This document shows positions 4,154 through 15,449 of a stretch of 15,449 nucleotides of DNA, in pieces. The position numbers and the translations under genes are program-made. The stretch is taken from UHGV virus genome UHGV-1643955; one strand, given 5' to 3'. Under the pieces are notes generated by a model. That model was not told the DNA's origin. It saw only the letters and a program-made list of their open reading frames with translations, and searched no databases. Origin of the DNA: a virus. Positions within the stretch are counted from its first letter, which is position 1. Each line of letters begins with the position of its first letter.

Positions 4154-5227
4154 ATGCGCCAGGAAACCCGCTTTAAATTTAATGCTTACCTGTCCCGTGT
4201 TGCCGAACTGAACGGCATCGACGCCGGTGATGTGTCGAAAAAATTCACCGTTGAACCGTCGGTCACCCAGACCCTGATGAACACCATGCAGGAGTCCTCT
4301 GACTTTCTGACCCGCATCAACATTGTGCCGGTCAGCGAAATGAAAGGGGAAAAAATTGGTATTGGTGTCACCGGCTCCATCGCCAGCACCACCGACACCG
4401 CCGGTGGCACCGAGCGTCAGCCGAAGGACTTCTCGAAGCTGGCGTCAAACAAGTACGAATGCGACCAGATTAACTTCGATTTTTATATCCGCTACAAAAC
4501 GCTTGACCTGTGGGCGCGTTATCAGGATTTCCAGCTCCGTGTCCGTAACGCTATTATCAAACGCCAGTCCCTTGATTTCATCATGGCCGGTTTTAACGGC
4601 GTGAAGCGTGCTGAAACCTCTGACCGCAGCAGCAATCCGATGTTGCAGGATGTGGCGGTCGGCTGGCTGCAGAAATACCGCAATGAAGCCCCGGCGCGCG
4701 TGATGAGCAAGGTCACTGACGAGGAAGGCCGCACCACCTCTGAGGTTATCCGCGTGGGTAAGGGCGGTGATTATGCCAGCCTTGATGCACTGGTGATGGA
4801 TGCGACCAACAACCTGATTGAGCCGTGGTATCAGGAAGACCCTGACCTTGTGGTGATTGTGGGACGTCAGCTACTGGCGGACAAGTATTTTCCCATCGTC
4901 AACAGGGAGCAGGACAACAGCGAAATGCTGGCCGCTGACGTCATCATCAGCCAGAAACGCATCGGTAACCTGCCGGCAGTGCGCGTCCCGTACTTCCCGG
5001 CAGATGCGATGCTCATCACGAAGCTGGAAAACCTGTCCATCTACTACATGGATGACAGCCATCGCCGCGTGATTGAGGAAAATCCGAAACTCGACCGCGT
5101 GGAGAACTACGAGTCAATGAATATTGATTACGTGGTGGAAGACTACGCCGCCGGTTGCCTGGTGGAAAAAATTAAGGTCGGTGATTTCTCCACACCGGCC
5201 AGGGCGACCGCAGAGCCGGGAGCGTAA
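4154..5227 (+). CDS. N: Major capsid protein, P2 gpN homolog
   Basis: 357-aa ORF (MRQETRFKFNAYLSRVAELNG...), same length and position as P2 gpN; AGGA upstream of the ATG. Confidence 0.9.
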   Translation: MRQETRFKFNAYLSRVAELNGIDAGDVSKKFTVEPSVTQTLMNTMQESSDFLTRINIVPVSEMKGEKIGIGVTGSIASTTDTAGGTERQPKDFSKLASNKYECDQINFDFYIRYKTLDLWARYQDFQLRVRNAIIKRQSLDFIMAGFNGVKRAETSDRSSNPMLQDVAVGWLQKYRNEAPARVMSKVTDEEGRTTSEVIRVGKGGDYASLDALVMDATNNLIEPWYQEDPDLVVIVGRQLLADKYFPIVNREQDNSEMLAADVIISQKRIGNLPAVRVPYFPADAMLITKLENLSIYYMDDSHRRVIEENPKLDRVENYESMNIDYVVEDYAAGCLVEKIKVGDFSTPARATAEPGA

Positions 5228-5230
5228 CCG

Positions 5231-5974
5231 ATGACGAGTCCCGCACAGCGCCACATGATGCGGGTCTCGGCAGCGATGACCGCGCAGCGGGAAGCCGCCC
5301 CGCTGCGACATGCAACTGTCTATGAGCAGATGCTGGTCAAGCTGGCCGCAGACCAGCGCACACTGAAAGCGATTTATTCAAAAGAGCTTAAGGCCGCGAA
5401 AAAGCGCGAACTGCTGCCGTTCTGGTTGCCGTGGGTGAACGGTGTGCTGGAGCAGGGCAAAGGTGCACAGGATGACATTCTGATGACGGTCATGCTGTGG
5501 CGTCTGGATACCGGCGATATTGCAGGTGCGCTGGAGATTGCCCGTTATGCCCTGAAATACGGTCTGACCATGCCGGGTAAACACCGCCGCACCCCGCCGT
5601 ACATGTTCACCGAGGAGGTGGCGCTCGCGGCCATGCGTGCTCACGCTGCCGGTGAGTCTGTGGATACCCGCCTGCTGACGGAGACCCTTGAACTGACCGC
5701 CACGGCTGACATGCCTGATGAAGTGCGCGCAAAGCTGCACAAAATCACAGGTCTGTTTCTGCGTGATGGTGGTGATGCCGCCGGTGCGCTGGCTCACCTG
5801 CAACGTGCGACACAGCTCGACTGTCAGGCAGGTGTCAAAAAAGAGATTGAACGACTGGAGCGGGAGCTGAAACCGAAGCCGGAGCCGCAGCCCAAAGCGG
5901 CCACCCGTACCCCGCGTAAGACCCGGAGCGTGACACCGGCAAAACGTGGACGCCCGAAAAAGAAAGCCAGTTAA
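5231..5974 (+). CDS. M: Terminase small (endonuclease) subunit, P2 gpM homolog
   Basis: 247-aa ORF starting 3 nt after the N stop, GGAG upstream; basic lysine/proline-rich C-terminus (KPKPEPQPKAATRTPRKTRSVTPAKRGRPKKKAS). Confidence 0.85.
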   Translation: MTSPAQRHMMRVSAAMTAQREAAPLRHATVYEQMLVKLAADQRTLKAIYSKELKAAKKRELLPFWLPWVNGVLEQGKGAQDDILMTVMLWRLDTGDIAGALEIARYALKYGLTMPGKHRRTPPYMFTEEVALAAMRAHAAGESVDTRLLTETLELTATADMPDEVRAKLHKITGLFLRDGGDAAGALAHLQRATQLDCQAGVKKEIERLERELKPKPEPQPKAATRTPRKTRSVTPAKRGRPKKKAS

Positions 5975-6073
5975 CAACCGAATGCGCCCCGCGCCAGGGC
6001 GGCACGCCGGTCAGTGAGGGTGAATCACCTGACACTGCACCGGCGTCCACCGCCCGACTTTTCAGAGGTAGTC

Positions 6074-6583
6074 ATGATGACGCTGATTATTCCGCGAAAG
6101 GAGGCTCCCGTGTCCGGTGAGGGTACGGTGGTCATCCCGCAACCGGCAGGCGACGAGCCGGTGATTAAAAACACGTTCTTTTTTCCCGATATCGACCCGA
6201 AGCGCGTCCGGGAACGTATGCGCCTTGAGCAGACCGTCGCCCCCGCCCGTCTGCGTGAGGCCATCAAGTCAGGCATGGCTGAAACGAATGCGGAGCTGTA
6301 CGAGTACCGCGAACAGAAAATTGCCGCCGGTTTTACGCGTCTGGCTGACGTCCCGGCGGACGACATCGACGGTGAAAGCATCAAAGTTTTTTACTACGAG
6401 CGCGCCGTGTGTGCGATGGCGACCGCATCGCTTTATGAGCGTTACCGCGGCGTGGATGCCAGTGCGAAAGGCGACAAGAAGGCCGACAGCATTGACAGCA
6501 CCATTGATGAACTGTGGCGGGATATGCGCTGGGCGGTGGCGCGTATCCAGGACAAGCCGCGCTGCATCGTGAGTCAAATCTGA
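6074..6583 (+). CDS. L: Head completion/stabilisation protein, P2 gpL homolog
   Basis: Start taken at ATG 6074 (MMTLIIPRKEAP...) with GAGG upstream, giving 169 aa as recalled for P2 gpL. The longer form in the ORF track has no RBS. Confidence 0.85.
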   Translation: MMTLIIPRKEAPVSGEGTVVIPQPAGDEPVIKNTFFFPDIDPKRVRERMRLEQTVAPARLREAIKSGMAETNAELYEYREQKIAAGFTRLADVPADDIDGESIKVFYYERAVCAMATASLYERYRGVDASAKGDKKADSIDSTIDELWRDMRWAVARIQDKPRCIVSQI

Positions 6584-8996: not shown

Positions 8997-9441
8997 GTTT
9001 AAGCGTTTTGAAGACCGGCTGACCGGACTGATTGAATCGCTGTCACCGTCAGGGCGTCGGCGACTGAGTGCCGAACTGGCGAAACGTCTGCGGCAGAGTC
9101 AGCAGCGTCGGGTGATGGCACAGAAAGCCCCGGACGGCACACCCTACGCGCCACGCCAGCAGCAGAGCGCCAGAAAAAAGACTGGTCGTGTTAAGCGAAA
9201 AATGTTTGCGAAACTTATCACCAGTCGTTTTTTGCATATCCGCGCCAGCCCGGAGCAGGCATCAATGGAGTTTTACGGCGGGAAGTCACCGAAAATCGCC
9301 AGTGTGCATCAGTTCGGTCTGTCGGAAGAAACCCGGAAAGACGGTAAGAAAATTGATTATCCGGCGCGTCCTCTGCTCGGCTTTACCGGTGAGGATGTGC
9401 AGATGATTGAAGAGATTATCCTGGCTCACCTCGACCGTTAG
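8989..9441 (+). CDS. S: Tail completion protein, P2 gpS homolog
   Basis: 150-aa ORF (MNEFKRFEDRLTGLIESLSP...), overlaps the R end by 8 nt. Confidence 0.85.
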   Translation: MNEFKRFEDRLTGLIESLSPSGRRRLSAELAKRLRQSQQRRVMAQKAPDGTPYAPRQQQSARKKTGRVKRKMFAKLITSRFLHIRASPEQASMEFYGGKSPKIASVHQFGLSEETRKDGKKIDYPARPLLGFTGEDVQMIEEIILAHLDR

Positions 9442-9507
9442 TTGTGCCATTCCTGACACCTCATCGTCACATTGCCGCCGGTATGACCCGGCGGCATCCT
9501 TCCCGTT
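9442..9507 (+). promoter_or_regulatory. S-V intergenic region: expected late promoter PV, plus a GC-rich hairpin 12 nt upstream of the V start
   Basis: A TGT...ACA dyad at 9443-9458 (TGTgccattcctgACA) has a 10-nt spacer, not the 12-nt spacing I recall for Ogr sites. A perfect 8-bp GC stem gccgccgg/ccggcggc (9474-9481 and 9488-9495) with loop tatgac follows. No clear Shine-Dalgarno for V. Confidence 0.4.
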
Positions 9508-11933: not shown

Positions 11934-14228
11934 ATGAGCACAAAATTCAGAACCGTTATCACCACTGCCGGTGCAGCAAAGCTGGCAGCGGCAACCGCAC
12001 CGGGAGGGCGGAAGGTCAACATTACCACGATGGCCGTCGGGGATGGCGGTGGTAAATTGCCTGTCCCGGATGCCGGACAGACCGGGCTTATCCACGAAGT
12101 CTGGCGACATGCGCTGAACAAAATCAGCCAGGACAAACGAAACAGTAATTATATTATCGCAGAGCTGGTTATTCCGCCGGAGGTGGGCGGTTTCTGGATG
12201 CGTGAGCTTGGCCTGTACGATGATGCGGGAACGTTAATTGCTGTGGCGAACATGGCCGAAAGTTATAAGCCAGCTCTTGCCGAAGGCTCAGGGCGTTCGC
12301 AGACCTGCCGCATGGTCATCATCGTCAGCAGTGTGGCCTCAGTGGAGCTGACCATTGACACCACAACGGTGATGGCGACGCAGGATTACGTTGATGACAA
12401 AATTGCAGAGCATGAACAGTCACGACGTCACCCGGACGCCTCGCTGACCGCAAAAGGTTTTACTCAGTTAAGCAGTGCGACCAACAGCACGTCTGAAACA
12501 CTGGCCGCAACGCCGAAAGCGGTAAAGGCCGCCTATGACCTTGCTAACGGGAAATATACTGCGCAGGATGCCACCACGGCGCGAAAAGGCCTTGTTCAGC
12601 TCAGTAGTGCGACCAACAGCACGTCTGAAACGCTCGCCGCAACGCCGAAAGCGGTAAAGGCCGCCTATGACCTTGCTAACGGGAAATACACTGCACAGGA
12701 CGCCACCACCGCGCGAAAAGGTCTTGTCCAGCTCAGTAGCGCCACCAACAGCGATTCTGAAACGCTTGCGGCAACACCAAAGGCGGTTAAGACAGCGTAT
12801 GACCTTGCTAACGGGAAATACACTGCACAGGATGCCACCACGGCGCGAAAAGGTCTTGTCCAGCTCAGTAGCGCCACCAACAGTGATTCTGAAACCCTCG
12901 CGGCAACGCCAAAAGCGGTGAAGTCTGCCTATGACAATGCTGAAAAACGTCTTCAGAAAGATCAGAACGGTGCGGATATTCCGGGAAAGGATACCTTCAC
13001 GAAAAATATCGGTGCCTGTCGTGCTTATAGCGGCGCTTTGAGCACTGAAGCCGGAAACTGGACAACCGCTCAGTTTATTGAATGGCTGGATTCCCGTGGT
13101 GCATTTAATCATCCGTACTGGATGTGCAAAGGCTCCTGGTCATATGCAAATAACAAAATCATTACGGATACCGGATGTGGTGATATCCACCTGGCTGGTT
13201 GTGTCGTCGAAGTCATGGGAACAAAATCTGCAATCACTATTCGAGTGACCACGCCGACAACATCAAGCGGTGGCGGTACAACCAGCGCGCAATTCACTTA
13301 CATTAATCATGGGGACGGCTACTCCCCCGGCTGGCGTCGTGACTGGAATCGTCAGGGCGACGCAATGACCGGAACGATTAATCAGGATGGCGGAAGCCAG
13401 AATGCCTATATGTCTACGGCCTTATGTTCAGGCACCAGAGGCGGCAAAAAATATCTCAGAAAGTTTCGTGGTGGAGAAGGAGACACTATCTGGCATGAAA
13501 CAGTGCAGGGCGGGGTAATTCGCTGGGCGACAGGAAACTATGACGATCAGGAAGAATTATCACTCAGCTCCGCTTATGGTCTCCGTTCTAGAGGTGGAAT
13601 TACATCACTCAGTACTAATGGTCTGCGCATTGCTTATGGCAATTATGGATTCTTTATCAGGAATGATGGCGGCAGCACATATTTAATGCTGACGGCCTCT
13701 GGCGATAAATTTGGGACATGGAACGGTTTAAGACCGCTGACTATCAATAACGCTAATGGCGGAGTGTCAATGGGGCATGGCCTGCGTGTTACTGGTGATA
13801 TTGCCTCAAGTACCAAAGTACGCGCCGGTAGCGGGAAAAAGTTCACGGTCAGCAGCAGTAATACATCCACGAAGGAAGCCGCATTCAATTTGTGGGGAAA
13901 CTCAAGTCGTCCGGTGGTGGCTGAATTAGGTGATGATGCAGGCTGGCATTTTTACAGTCAGAGAAATACAGATAACAGCATCACTTTTGCTGTTAACGGT
14001 CAGGTATCACCATCTAACTATAGTAATTTTGATTCCCGTTATGTACGCGATATCCGGCTTGGGACTCGAGTTGTCCAGACCATGCAGAAAGGGGTGATGT
14101 ATGAGAAAGCAGGGCACGTAATTACCGGGCTTGGTATTATCGGTGAAGTCGATGGTGATGACCCCGCAGTATTCAGACCAATACAAAAATACATCAATGG
14201 CACATGGTATAACGTCGCACAGGTGTAA
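11934..14228 (+). CDS. H: Tail fibre protein, P2 gpH homolog, with expanded internal repeats and a divergent C-terminal receptor-binding region
   Basis: 764-aa ORF with a conserved P2 H-type N-terminus (MSTKFRTVITTAGAAKLAAATAPGG...), GAGGA upstream. It is longer than the 669 aa I recall for P2 gpH, and about 3.7 tandem 44-aa 'tail fibre repeat' units (...QLSSATNSTSETLAATPKAVKAAYDLANGKYTAQDATTARKG...) account for much of the difference. Confidence 0.9.
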   Translation: MSTKFRTVITTAGAAKLAAATAPGGRKVNITTMAVGDGGGKLPVPDAGQTGLIHEVWRHALNKISQDKRNSNYIIAELVIPPEVGGFWMRELGLYDDAGTLIAVANMAESYKPALAEGSGRSQTCRMVIIVSSVASVELTIDTTTVMATQDYVDDKIAEHEQSRRHPDASLTAKGFTQLSSATNSTSETLAATPKAVKAAYDLANGKYTAQDATTARKGLVQLSSATNSTSETLAATPKAVKAAYDLANGKYTAQDATTARKGLVQLSSATNSDSETLAATPKAVKTAYDLANGKYTAQDATTARKGLVQLSSATNSDSETLAATPKAVKSAYDNAEKRLQKDQNGADIPGKDTFTKNIGACRAYSGALSTEAGNWTTAQFIEWLDSRGAFNHPYWMCKGSWSYANNKIITDTGCGDIHLAGCVVEVMGTKSAITIRVTTPTTSSGGGTTSAQFTYINHGDGYSPGWRRDWNRQGDAMTGTINQDGGSQNAYMSTALCSGTRGGKKYLRKFRGGEGDTIWHETVQGGVIRWATGNYDDQEELSLSSAYGLRSRGGITSLSTNGLRIAYGNYGFFIRNDGGSTYLMLTASGDKFGTWNGLRPLTINNANGGVSMGHGLRVTGDIASSTKVRAGSGKKFTVSSSNTSTKEAAFNLWGNSSRPVVAELGDDAGWHFYSQRNTDNSITFAVNGQVSPSNYSNFDSRYVRDIRLGTRVVQTMQKGVMYEKAGHVITGLGIIGEVDGDDPAVFRPIQKYINGTWYNVAQV
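12452..12936 (+). repeat. Tandem 132-bp (44-codon) direct repeats, about 3.7 copies, inside H
   Basis: The motif aaaagg[tc]...cagct[ct]agtag[tc]gc...acggcgcga recurs at 12452, 12584, 12716 and 12848, an exact 132-bp period; the fourth copy diverges after about 12936. Copies differ at only a few positions. Confidence 0.85.
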
Positions 14229-14231
14229 TTT

Positions 14232-14756
14232 ATGCAACATTTAAAAAATATTACTGCGGGTAATCCAAAAACTGTTGCCCAATATCAACTGACAAAAAAT
14301 TTTGATGTTATCTGGTTATGGTCCGAAGAGGGAAAAAACTGGTATGAGGAAGTAAGTAATTTTCAGGAGGACACGATAAAGATTGTTTACGACGAGAATA
14401 ATATAATTGTCGGCATCACCCGAGATGCTTCAACGCTTAACCCTGAAGGTTTTAGCGTTGTTGAGGTTCCTGATATTACTGCCAACCGACGTGCTGATGA
14501 CTCAGGTAAATGGATGTTTAAGGATGGTGCCGTGATTAAGCGGATTTATACGGCAGACGAACAGCAACAACAGGCAGAATCACAAAAGGCCGCGTTACTT
14601 TCCGAAGCGGAAAGCGTTATTCAGCCACTGGAGCGCGCTGTCAGGCTGAACATGGCAACAGATGAGGAGCGTAGCCGACTGGAAGCATGGGAACGCTACA
14701 GTGTTCTGGTCAGCCGTGTGGATCCTGCAAATCCTGAATGGCCGGAAATGCCGTAA
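14232..14756 (+). CDS. G: Tail fibre assembly chaperone, P2 gpG homolog
   Basis: 174-aa ORF immediately after H (4-nt gap). The C-terminus (...[25 protein letters not shown]) resembles the conserved Tfa C-terminal region. The N-terminal half is AT-rich: I counted 19 G+C in the 60 nt of 14281-14340. Confidence 0.85.
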
Positions 14757-14781
14757 TAAGTGATATGATCTCTTGTGTTAG

Positions 14782-14868
14782 TTAACATAGCTATAGTACA
14801 GAGTAAGGCCTAATCTGACAGTCCGCTCTGTGCTAGGAGCGGACATTATCAACATCATGCTATGTTAA
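14782..14868. repeat. Nested inverted repeats at the boundary between G and the AT-rich cargo region
   Basis: Outer 10-bp perfect inverted repeat ttaacatagc (14782-14791) and gctatgttaa (14859-14868). Inside it, a perfect 8-bp stem gtccgctc (14821-14828) and gagcggac (14837-14844) with an 8-nt loop. No T-run follows on either strand, so it is not a canonical intrinsic terminator. Confidence 0.5.
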
Positions 14869-15148
14869 TGTATAAAGTGAAGATAAATTGATATAATAAG
14901 GCCACCATGAATATTTCAGAACCTTGTCAAAAGGTTTGCACATACTCTAGTCTTGCAATGTGTAGTTGATAGTTCCACTGAGGAGGTTCTTCGACATTCT
15001 TTATAAAAATGTACATTTTCATCAATAATAAGAGGTAAAAGGGCTTTAATAGTTTTTTGTGGATGTTATTTCTACTCATAAATTTTGAGATAAGTATTGA
15101 GTTGAGATAAAGTTAAACTCGTTAAATTCACCTTTAAAAGGATAAAGC

Positions 15149-15402
15149 ATGGACTGGAAAGATCTTGCATCAACTGCTGTGTATACAGGTATGACTGATG
15201 AAAATGAAAGCATATGGGAACGTGTTGATGGGGTTGACGTTGCCTTCATAGGTGCCTTTCTTACTGCGCACTTGAGCCTTGAAAAGTATATTACTGATTA
15301 TCTTGGATTAAGATATCCTTCGTTAGCTTGGGGTGATGCAAAACTCACATTTTCACAAAAAATAGCTTTAATACAACATGAGCCTGCAAAACCCCCTTAT
15401 GA
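15149..15402 (+). CDS. Partial ORF of unknown function (5' end only), first cargo gene of the G-FI hotspot; truncated by the contig end and adapter
   Basis: ATG at 15149 preceded by AAGGA (about 15138-15142). Open frame MDWKDLASTAVYTGMTDENESIWERVDGVDVAFIGAFLTAHLSLEKYITDYLGLRYPSLAWGDAKLTFSQKIALIQHEPAKPPYD runs straight into the adapter at 15403. AT-rich, unlike the phage backbone. I do not recognise the protein. Confidence 0.45.
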
Positions 15403-15449
15403 CTGTCTCTTATACACATCTGACGCTGCCGACGATATGCAGTGTGTAG
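15403..15449 (+). other. Illumina Nextera adapter read-through (technical artefact, not biological sequence)
   Basis: CTGTCTCTTATACACATCT (reverse complement of the Tn5 mosaic end) + GACGCTGCCGACGA + TATGCAGT (reverse complement of ACTGCATA, which I recall as i5 index N506/S506) + GTGTAG (start of the reverse-complemented P5 sequence GTGTAGATCTCGGTGG...). Confidence 0.9.

Follow-up and report, generated by a model that had tools for sequence, protein, structure and literature searches.

The last 47 nucleotides (positions 15403 to 15449) of the virus genome UHGV-1643955, a stretch of 15,449 nucleotides (nt) that was analyzed over its whole length and is referred to below as the window, are almost certainly a laboratory artefact, a leftover of an Illumina Nextera adapter, and not genomic sequence. 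The feature is a product of the sequencing library and no biological element, and there is nothing new about the adapter itself. The consequences are mainly a matter of data hygiene, while the analysis yielded, as by-products, the point at which the contig should be clipped, the identity of the gene that is truncated there, and a view of how far the same adapter has spread in public data. The window represents the late region of a prophage of the P2 type (Peduovirus), and the open reading frame (ORF) running into the adapter is the 5' fragment of a gene that plausibly has a HepS-like role in defence and sits at a P2 locus known for defence; it merits recovery from intact genomes.

Composition of the tail and the junction at position 15402

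Read directly from the letters, the end of the window consists of CTGTCTCTTATACACATCT, GACGCTGCCGACGA, TATGCAGT, and GTGTAG, in that order, and the letters to the left and right of the boundary between 15402 and 15403 are CCCCCTTATGA and CTGTCTCTTATACACATCTGACGCTGCCGACGATATGCAGTGTGTAG, respectively. The reference for comparison was the reverse complement of the i5-side Nextera oligonucleotide, i.e., of P5 followed by an 8-nt i5 index, TCGTCGGCAGCGTC, and the mosaic end AGATGTGTATAAGAGACAG; the sequences of these oligonucleotides were checked against published papers. With index 506 (ACTGCATA), the last 47 nt matched this reference completely (47/47), whereas the 17 other i5 indexes, out of 18 compared, reached only 39 to 43 of the 47 positions.

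All parts of the tail lie on the plus strand. Its first 19 nt (15403 to 15421) are the Tn5 mosaic end in reverse complement, an exact match and the sole such site in the window, even when 3 mismatches were allowed; in 200 shuffles, no match to this 19-mer was obtained. An exact reverse complement of the 14-nt Nextera read-1 stub follows (15422 to 15435), and after it come the 8 nt (15436 to 15443) that represent the reverse complement of i5 index 506, the only index of the 18 to give 47/47. The window stops with the first 6 nt of the P5 reverse complement (15444 to 15449), again an exact match. This arrangement agrees with the published one: the trimming sequence given for read 2 is the 33-mer CTGTCTCTTATACACATCTGACGCTGCCGACGA, of which the first 19 nt are the mosaic-end part; behind it come the reverse-complemented index and the polymerase chain reaction (PCR) primer (P5), and a run of As appears once a read has gone beyond the library molecule (full read-through) (Turner 2014, Front Genet, PMC3906532). 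The index list of a protocol paper gives i5 506 as ACTGCATA (PMC12067302). With the order of 33-mer, index, and P5 being identical here, there is no difference in kind from Nextera or Nextera XT read-through, except that the published account (PMC3906532) concerns raw reads, whereas the adapter of the window survived into an assembled contig.

Elsewhere in the window, no further adapter fragments were found, and the left end is natural, as 1,478 Escherichia coli genomes align from base 1 onward. The tail fibre gene gpH contains two copies of the 10-mer CACGTCTGAA, at a distance of 132 nt (window positions 12488 and 12620); their agreement with a TruSeq adapter 10-mer was judged to be due to chance, and a repeat internal to the fibre gene may explain them.

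The position of the junction could be fixed by comparison with independent genomes. When the segment from 14700 to 15449 was used as the query, matches at ≥99% identity were obtained for 50 complete chromosomes of E. coli and for a single phage record (ON470601), and every alignment covered query positions 1 to 703, ending at window position 15402. In the chromosome NZ_CP070170, 703 of 703 positions up to 15402 are identical, after which the agreement drops to 13 of 47, a level of random similarity. An exact-protein look-up with the tail fibre protein gpH brought up two further assemblies of this prophage, made independently from metagenomes, one in ENA and one in JGI. The 165-kb ENA contig (k119_51306) shows 0 mismatches to the window over 13,469 nt ending at 15402; beyond this point, it continues with the natural ORF of 175 amino acids, the tail sheath and tube genes, and onward to ogr and host genes, while the JGI contig (Ga0238551_100047) is likewise identical up to 15402 and natural thereafter. 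Searched against 5,426 complete E. coli genomes, the 47-mer itself gave no match. The contig should be clipped after position 15402 and its last 47 nt removed.

The junction has a direct bearing on the ORF that crosses it. In NZ_CP070170, the natural ORF measures 528 nt and encodes 175 amino acids, annotated as a hypothetical protein (WP_001461859.1). Its genuine 5' part in the window (15149 to 15402, plus strand) comprises codons 1 to 84 and the first 2 nt of the next one. That codon, number 85, is split by the junction (GA on the genomic side and C on the adapter side, naturally GAT) and encodes Asp in both cases, so the window reads PPYD followed by the adapter-encoded CLLYTSDAADDMQCV (residues 86 to 100), where the natural protein continues as PPYDEIYLRIKDFNSIRNKISH. 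Protein predictions ending in CLLYTSDAADDMQCV are chimeric, and the ORF starting at 15149 is to be regarded only as a 5' fragment. The first-pass annotation of this stretch had described the last 47 nt as an exact Nextera structure, which holds in coordinates, in length, and at all 47 positions, and gains further support from the homologues that end at 15402 and from the recurrence of the 47-mer at contig ends in unrelated public sequences, followed there by the rest of P5 and by poly-A or poly-G. It had also called the 3' end of the ORF artificial past 15402; the natural 175-residue copy bears this out, with the nuance that the artificial residues begin at 86.

The same adapter in public sequences and other readings of the tail

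The 47-mer, or its 33-nt core, was found in 28 phage records of GenBank and RefSeq, with hosts belonging to Escherichia, Vibrio, Listeria, Acinetobacter, Bacillus, and Paenibacillus. A scan of IMG/VR with the 47-mer returned 23 stretches, none of them related to the window, and among the genome contigs of GTDB at least 120 carry it, ranging from Thermococci to Streptomyces and including archaea, Firmicutes, and Actinobacteria. Most copies point outward and reach the very end of the stretch (106 of 124 in GTDB, among the matches listed, and 151 of 160 in IMG/VR; together, 257 of 284). Longer copies in IMG/VR and GTDB continue as ATCTCGGTGGTCGCCGTATCATT, i.e., the full 70-nt adapter, and then enter poly-A or poly-G. 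The 8-nt index slot differs between samples, and each variant observed there (16/16) corresponds, in reverse complement, to an i5 index in the catalogue. In sequence, outward orientation, and modal length (46 to 48 nt), the remnants in IMG/VR, GTDB, and the GenBank and RefSeq phages are the same as that of the window.

The GTDB matches bunch by assembly, with 80 listed matches falling in 24 assemblies and up to 13 contigs in a single one. This bunching supports a warning given in the first-pass annotation, namely, that the reads had been poorly trimmed or left untrimmed and that other contig ends of the same assembly deserve suspicion; together with the 47-nt length, which fits an assembly at k=55 (see below), it provides indirect support for that claim.

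Some public records, unlike the window, hold the adapter internally and translate it in frame. In RefSeq record NC_049386.1 (Peduovirus P22H1, a P2-like phage), the 33-mer lies at about positions 1294 to 1329 of the record, in frame inside the annotated terminase large subunit, which reads NEPLT-CLLYTSDAADDP-AGISTPL where the otherwise collinear terminase of the window reads NEPLTAGISTPL; this RefSeq terminase thus carries a 12-residue adapter-encoded insert (CLLYTSDAADDP). In another RefSeq record, NC_049949.1 (Escherichia phage ev207, a lambdoid phage), positions 1 to 47 are identical to the 47-mer, including index 506, on the other strand. The C terminus of ev207 gp01 (YP_009909638.1) is the adapter-encoded VSYTHLTLPTICSV, and its stop codon is a TAG within P5. 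Public contigs, and even RefSeq proteins, contain the adapter and its peptides on a wide scale, and the peptides CLLYTSDAADD and VSYTHLTLPT, or the 33-mers CTGTCTCTTATACACATCTGACGCTGCCGACGA and CTGTCTCTTATACACATCTCCGAGCCCACGAGAC, would make a cheap contamination filter.

We weighed several other readings of the tail. That natural phage sequence should resemble the adapter by chance can be dismissed outright: the probability of finding the full 47-mer anywhere in the window, over all 18 indexes, is about 3e-23, and the natural homologues differ in sequence at this site. Another reading is that a transposon really did insert into the prophage gene, whether Tn5/IS50 in its natural form or a mini-Tn5 engineered to carry mosaic ends (e.g., from transposon sequencing). 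In its favor, the mosaic end is derived from the IS50 ends, and mini-Tn5 elements of the mosaic-end type are in wide use for work on E. coli. The natural IS50 outside end is CTGACTCTTATACACAAGT and the inside end is CTGTCTCTTGATCAGATCT; the mosaic end, having been engineered from them, shares 12 to 16 of 19 positions with the natural IS50/Tn5 ends, and its positions 5 to 16 (CTCTTATACACA) are common to the natural outside end. However, the 19-mer in the window is the synthetic mosaic end and neither the outside nor the inside end, and the 28 nt behind it consist of the Illumina read-1 stub, an i5 index from the catalogue, and the start of P5, with neither IS50 body nor a marker cassette. Of the two junctions that an inserted element would form, with a 9-bp target-site duplication, the window contains one. 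An integrated element is also at odds with the 0 copies of the 47-mer in the 5,426 complete E. coli genomes and with the identical copies at contig ends in archaea, Firmicutes, and Actinobacteria, where poly-A or poly-G follows. Taken together, the flank being an Illumina oligonucleotide and the end a synthetic one, we regard a transposon insertion as extremely improbable.

A further reading accepts the adapter as real but places it inside a longer chimeric contig, produced by an adapter-mediated mis-join or by an unclipped join of circular overlap, so that the boundary of the window merely cuts it. A few of the public copies do lie more than 30 nt from the end of their stretch (2 of 160 in IMG/VR and 7 of 124 in GTDB, among the matches listed). 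More than 90% of the public copies, in contrast, extend to the very end of the stretch, and 15,449 is a non-round length for a window, suggesting a natural end. Because the window stops 6 nt into P5, which corresponds to the modal length of the end-of-contig remnants, we consider a chimeric contig unlikely, although clearly less so than a transposon. Nothing directly contradicts an adapter remnant at a contig end, but some caveats apply to it or to parts of the pathway proposed for it below: P5 is represented by 6 nt only; internal copies make up a few percent of those known in public records, the terminase of NC_049386.1 being an example; a 40-mer spanning the junction had no match in the JGI metagenome contigs or in IMG/VR; the chimeric protein of 100 amino acids is absent from a collection of 15 billion proteins; and the coverage-dropout and k=55 steps draw on other assemblies and on a model.

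How the adapter may have entered the contig

In the pathway that we propose, Nextera-type tagmentation by Tn5 would have cleaved the prophage directly behind position 15402 and joined the i5-side adapter to the cut end, yielding a library fragment shorter than the read length. Because of this short insert, read 2, proceeding rightward on the plus strand, would have run through the insert and into the reverse complements of the mosaic end, the read-1 stub, index 506, and P5. If the reads were then left untrimmed or were trimmed incompletely, the assembler could have extended the end of the contig with an adapter-bearing read, while the genuine continuation was left unassembled, most likely on account of a collapse in coverage over the very AT-rich sequence downstream.

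The AT-rich context itself is readily seen. At the junction, the GC content falls from about 0.40 to 0.45 to between 0.23 and 0.31 and stays there for approximately 400 nt, with values of 0.23 to 0.30 from about nt 240 of the gene onward, and Nextera XT is reported to strongly under-cover low-GC regions (PMC6796507). Other records also break here. Ga0238551_100047 ends, in natural sequence, 23 nt beyond the junction (window-equivalent position 15425), and ON470601 contains a run of 35 Ns that begins 50 nt beyond it. The 90% cluster of the cargo protein contains many NCBI entries marked as partial, with breaks at residues 67, 82, 101, 113, 116, and 140, and one C-terminal fragment that begins at residue 72. 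The repeated breaks inside this AT-rich gene look like a systematic low-GC coverage dropout, and we infer that such a dropout occurred in the present library as well.

The length of the remnant may be explained by the assembly graph. In an unbiased sample from IMG/VR, contig-end adapter remnants had a median length of 46 nt, with 57% falling between 42 and 49 nt, a sharp drop at 50 nt, and a second group at 61 to 70 nt. We modeled a de Bruijn graph with k=55, in which the path from a given junction merges with others at the k-mer that holds the longest shared genomic suffix (g*); as the unitig ends at this merge point, it carries 55 − g* adapter bases. For 1e4 to 1e6 junctions, the number that the pattern in public contigs would imply for each read set, the model predicts remnants of 44 to 50 nt, with a mode of 47 nt at about 1e5 junctions. 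In the case of the window, where the 8-nt genomic suffix at the junction is CCTTATGA, extension would have halted 47 nt into the adapter, because the paths of thousands of junctions merge some 7 to 9 genomic bases before the pure-adapter k-mer is reached. Contigs with SPAdes-type names (NODE_) carried copies of 47 to 50 nt in 35 of 35 cases, compared with 57 to 70 nt in an assembly from another pipeline. The remnant of the window thus fits a SPAdes-type assembly of essentially untrimmed reads, and in the model its length would correspond to k=55 and approximately 1e4 to 1e5 adapter junctions. Partial trimming, by a tool that recognizes at least about 10 nt of P5 but not the mosaic end, could still account for a length of 47 nt; we nevertheless replaced that explanation with the k=55 merging model, as the latter predicts the whole hump from 42 to 50 nt and fits the SPAdes-named contigs.

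The interrupted cargo gene and its prophage surroundings

The late region covered by the window includes the cos site and the portal, terminase, capsid, lysis, baseplate, and tail fibre genes, up to gpG. The left border of the cargo slot is formed by the tail fibre assembly gene gpG (14232 to 14756, plus strand), which is annotated as such in homologous records and for which the Pfam model Caudo_TAP was found on the identical gene. It is followed by an AT-rich, noncoding leader (14757 to 15148), which stretches from gpG to the cargo ORF in the position of the fun(Z) slot of P2 and has a GC content of 27 to 43%, versus 55 to 62% in the neighboring tail sheath gene. In homologous records, no ORF other than the cargo ORF lies between gpG and gpFI; P2 itself carries fun(Z) at this place, and the Z/fun locus has been cited as a defence locus (PMC13586616). 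A scan of the cargo island for promoters and terminators stayed at background level, save for a single hairpin resembling a terminator, which lies beyond the window, on the downstream side of the natural ORF. The small ORFs between 14700 and 15449 were unremarkable, and an Rfam scan of the window returned nothing.

At the other end of the window, the 19-nt cohesive end of P2 (cosL, GGCGAGGCGGGGAAAGCAC) is present without mismatch at positions 73 to 91, 72 nt inside the left end. The sequence thus spans cos, as would be expected for a prophage or for a circular or concatemeric template and not for the ends of linear virion DNA. The prophage in NZ_CP070170 ceases to be collinear with the window just upstream of gpV (at about window positions 9400 to 9500), and the place that gpS and the late genes before it occupy in the window is taken there by a gene annotated as "GTP pyrophosphokinase" (RelA/SpoT-like); that gene may be prophage cargo or simply belong to the flanking chromosome.

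For the family analyses, the full-length natural copy of 175 residues was used. No Pfam or PADLOC model covers this protein, DUF6548 coming out at E = 0.026, below the cut-off, and it falls in PHROG 5483, a group of unknown function. There are 24 close clusters in Enterobacterales. Among 21 family members, R98, N99, K100, S102, and H103 are invariant and make up an Rx4H motif (R98-x4-H103), in line with the Rx4-6H motif of HEPN proteins. The AlphaFold model is all-helical (predicted local distance difference test [pLDDT] score, 75.7; predicted template modeling [pTM] score, 0.71) and thereby predicts the all-alpha fold expected of HEPN. Within 368 representative clusters recovered by an exhaustive profile search, [IVL]RNxxxH was kept in 137 of the 150 best. 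A profile built from 78 relatives matched HepS (9oij_A) with E = 3.6e-07, over only some 40 residues around the motif (the catalytic helix), and the HEPN domains of Csm6 came next. A narrow family profile matched HepS with E = 0.015, and the structural comparison in Foldseek gave E = 0.36 (probability, 0.91 to 0.93; template modeling score, 0.45). Scattered family members touch HEPN Pfam families. As the adapter cuts the gene at residue 85, the copy in the window is without the predicted catalytic Rx4H motif, which lies just beyond the cut.

The genomic context of the family was inspected as well. The cargo gene stands alone, with neither a partner nor an antitoxin gene. A relative with 62% identity (Logan contig ERR5464317_12) lies after a tail fibre gene of a P2-type prophage and adjoins a gene with an AbiGi domain as well as a 228-residue gene of unknown function; this arrangement, at positions 4708 to 6177 of that stretch, suggests a multigene defence slot. 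A Serratia copy is located in a chromosomal islet instead. Two variants of the cargo protein were also observed. One, of 84 residues, ends in HEPATPPL at an A4C5 homopolymer just before the junction, in a 4.7-Mb record, and looks like a frameshift or truncation; the other, of 156 residues, lacks 19 internal residues (between ITDKE and NIDIDN) and resides on a 1.1-kb ENA contig. Both could reflect either real variation or assembly errors in the AT-rich stretch.

On the basis of the motif, the all-helical model, the profile matches, and the context of the relatives, we read the cargo gene as a candidate defence nuclease of the HEPN superfamily that resembles HepS, with membership in the HepS family and activity both being putative. 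Possibly, although we would lean slightly against it, the gene encodes an uncharacterised HepS-like solo HEPN abortive-infection (Abi) nuclease in the fun(Z) slot of P2 that repeatedly breaks in, or drops out of, Nextera short-read assemblies because its body has a GC content of only 23 to 30%. If this were true, a HepS-like defence family would be systematically truncated or under-sampled in catalogues of metagenomes and draft genomes.

Judged by sequence, the closest characterised relative of the family appears to be HepS, a solo HEPN anticodon nuclease from the Salmonella prophage Gifsy-1 that acts in abortive infection (Sargen et al. 2026, PMC13043305). HepS is activated by siphovirus tail-tip proteins, forms a tetramer, cleaves the anticodon loops of tRNAs by means of its catalytic residues R100 and H105, and has 393 reported homologues (PMC13043305). 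Like HepS, the cargo protein is a small, stand-alone product of a prophage cargo gene with no partner gene, its Rx4H motif occupies nearly the same position (R98-H103 versus R100-H105), and the local signature LN-x-IRNK-x-x-H-x-x-x-Y/F-x-I/L-T-x-x-D is common to both. The two proteins differ in that they share only about 16 to 18% identity, with the significant match confined to approximately 40 residues, and in length (175 versus 212 residues). They also differ in location, the cargo gene being situated in the slot between the tail fibre and tail sheath genes of a P2-type myovirus, whereas HepS is encoded in the replication/antirepressor region of a lambdoid prophage.
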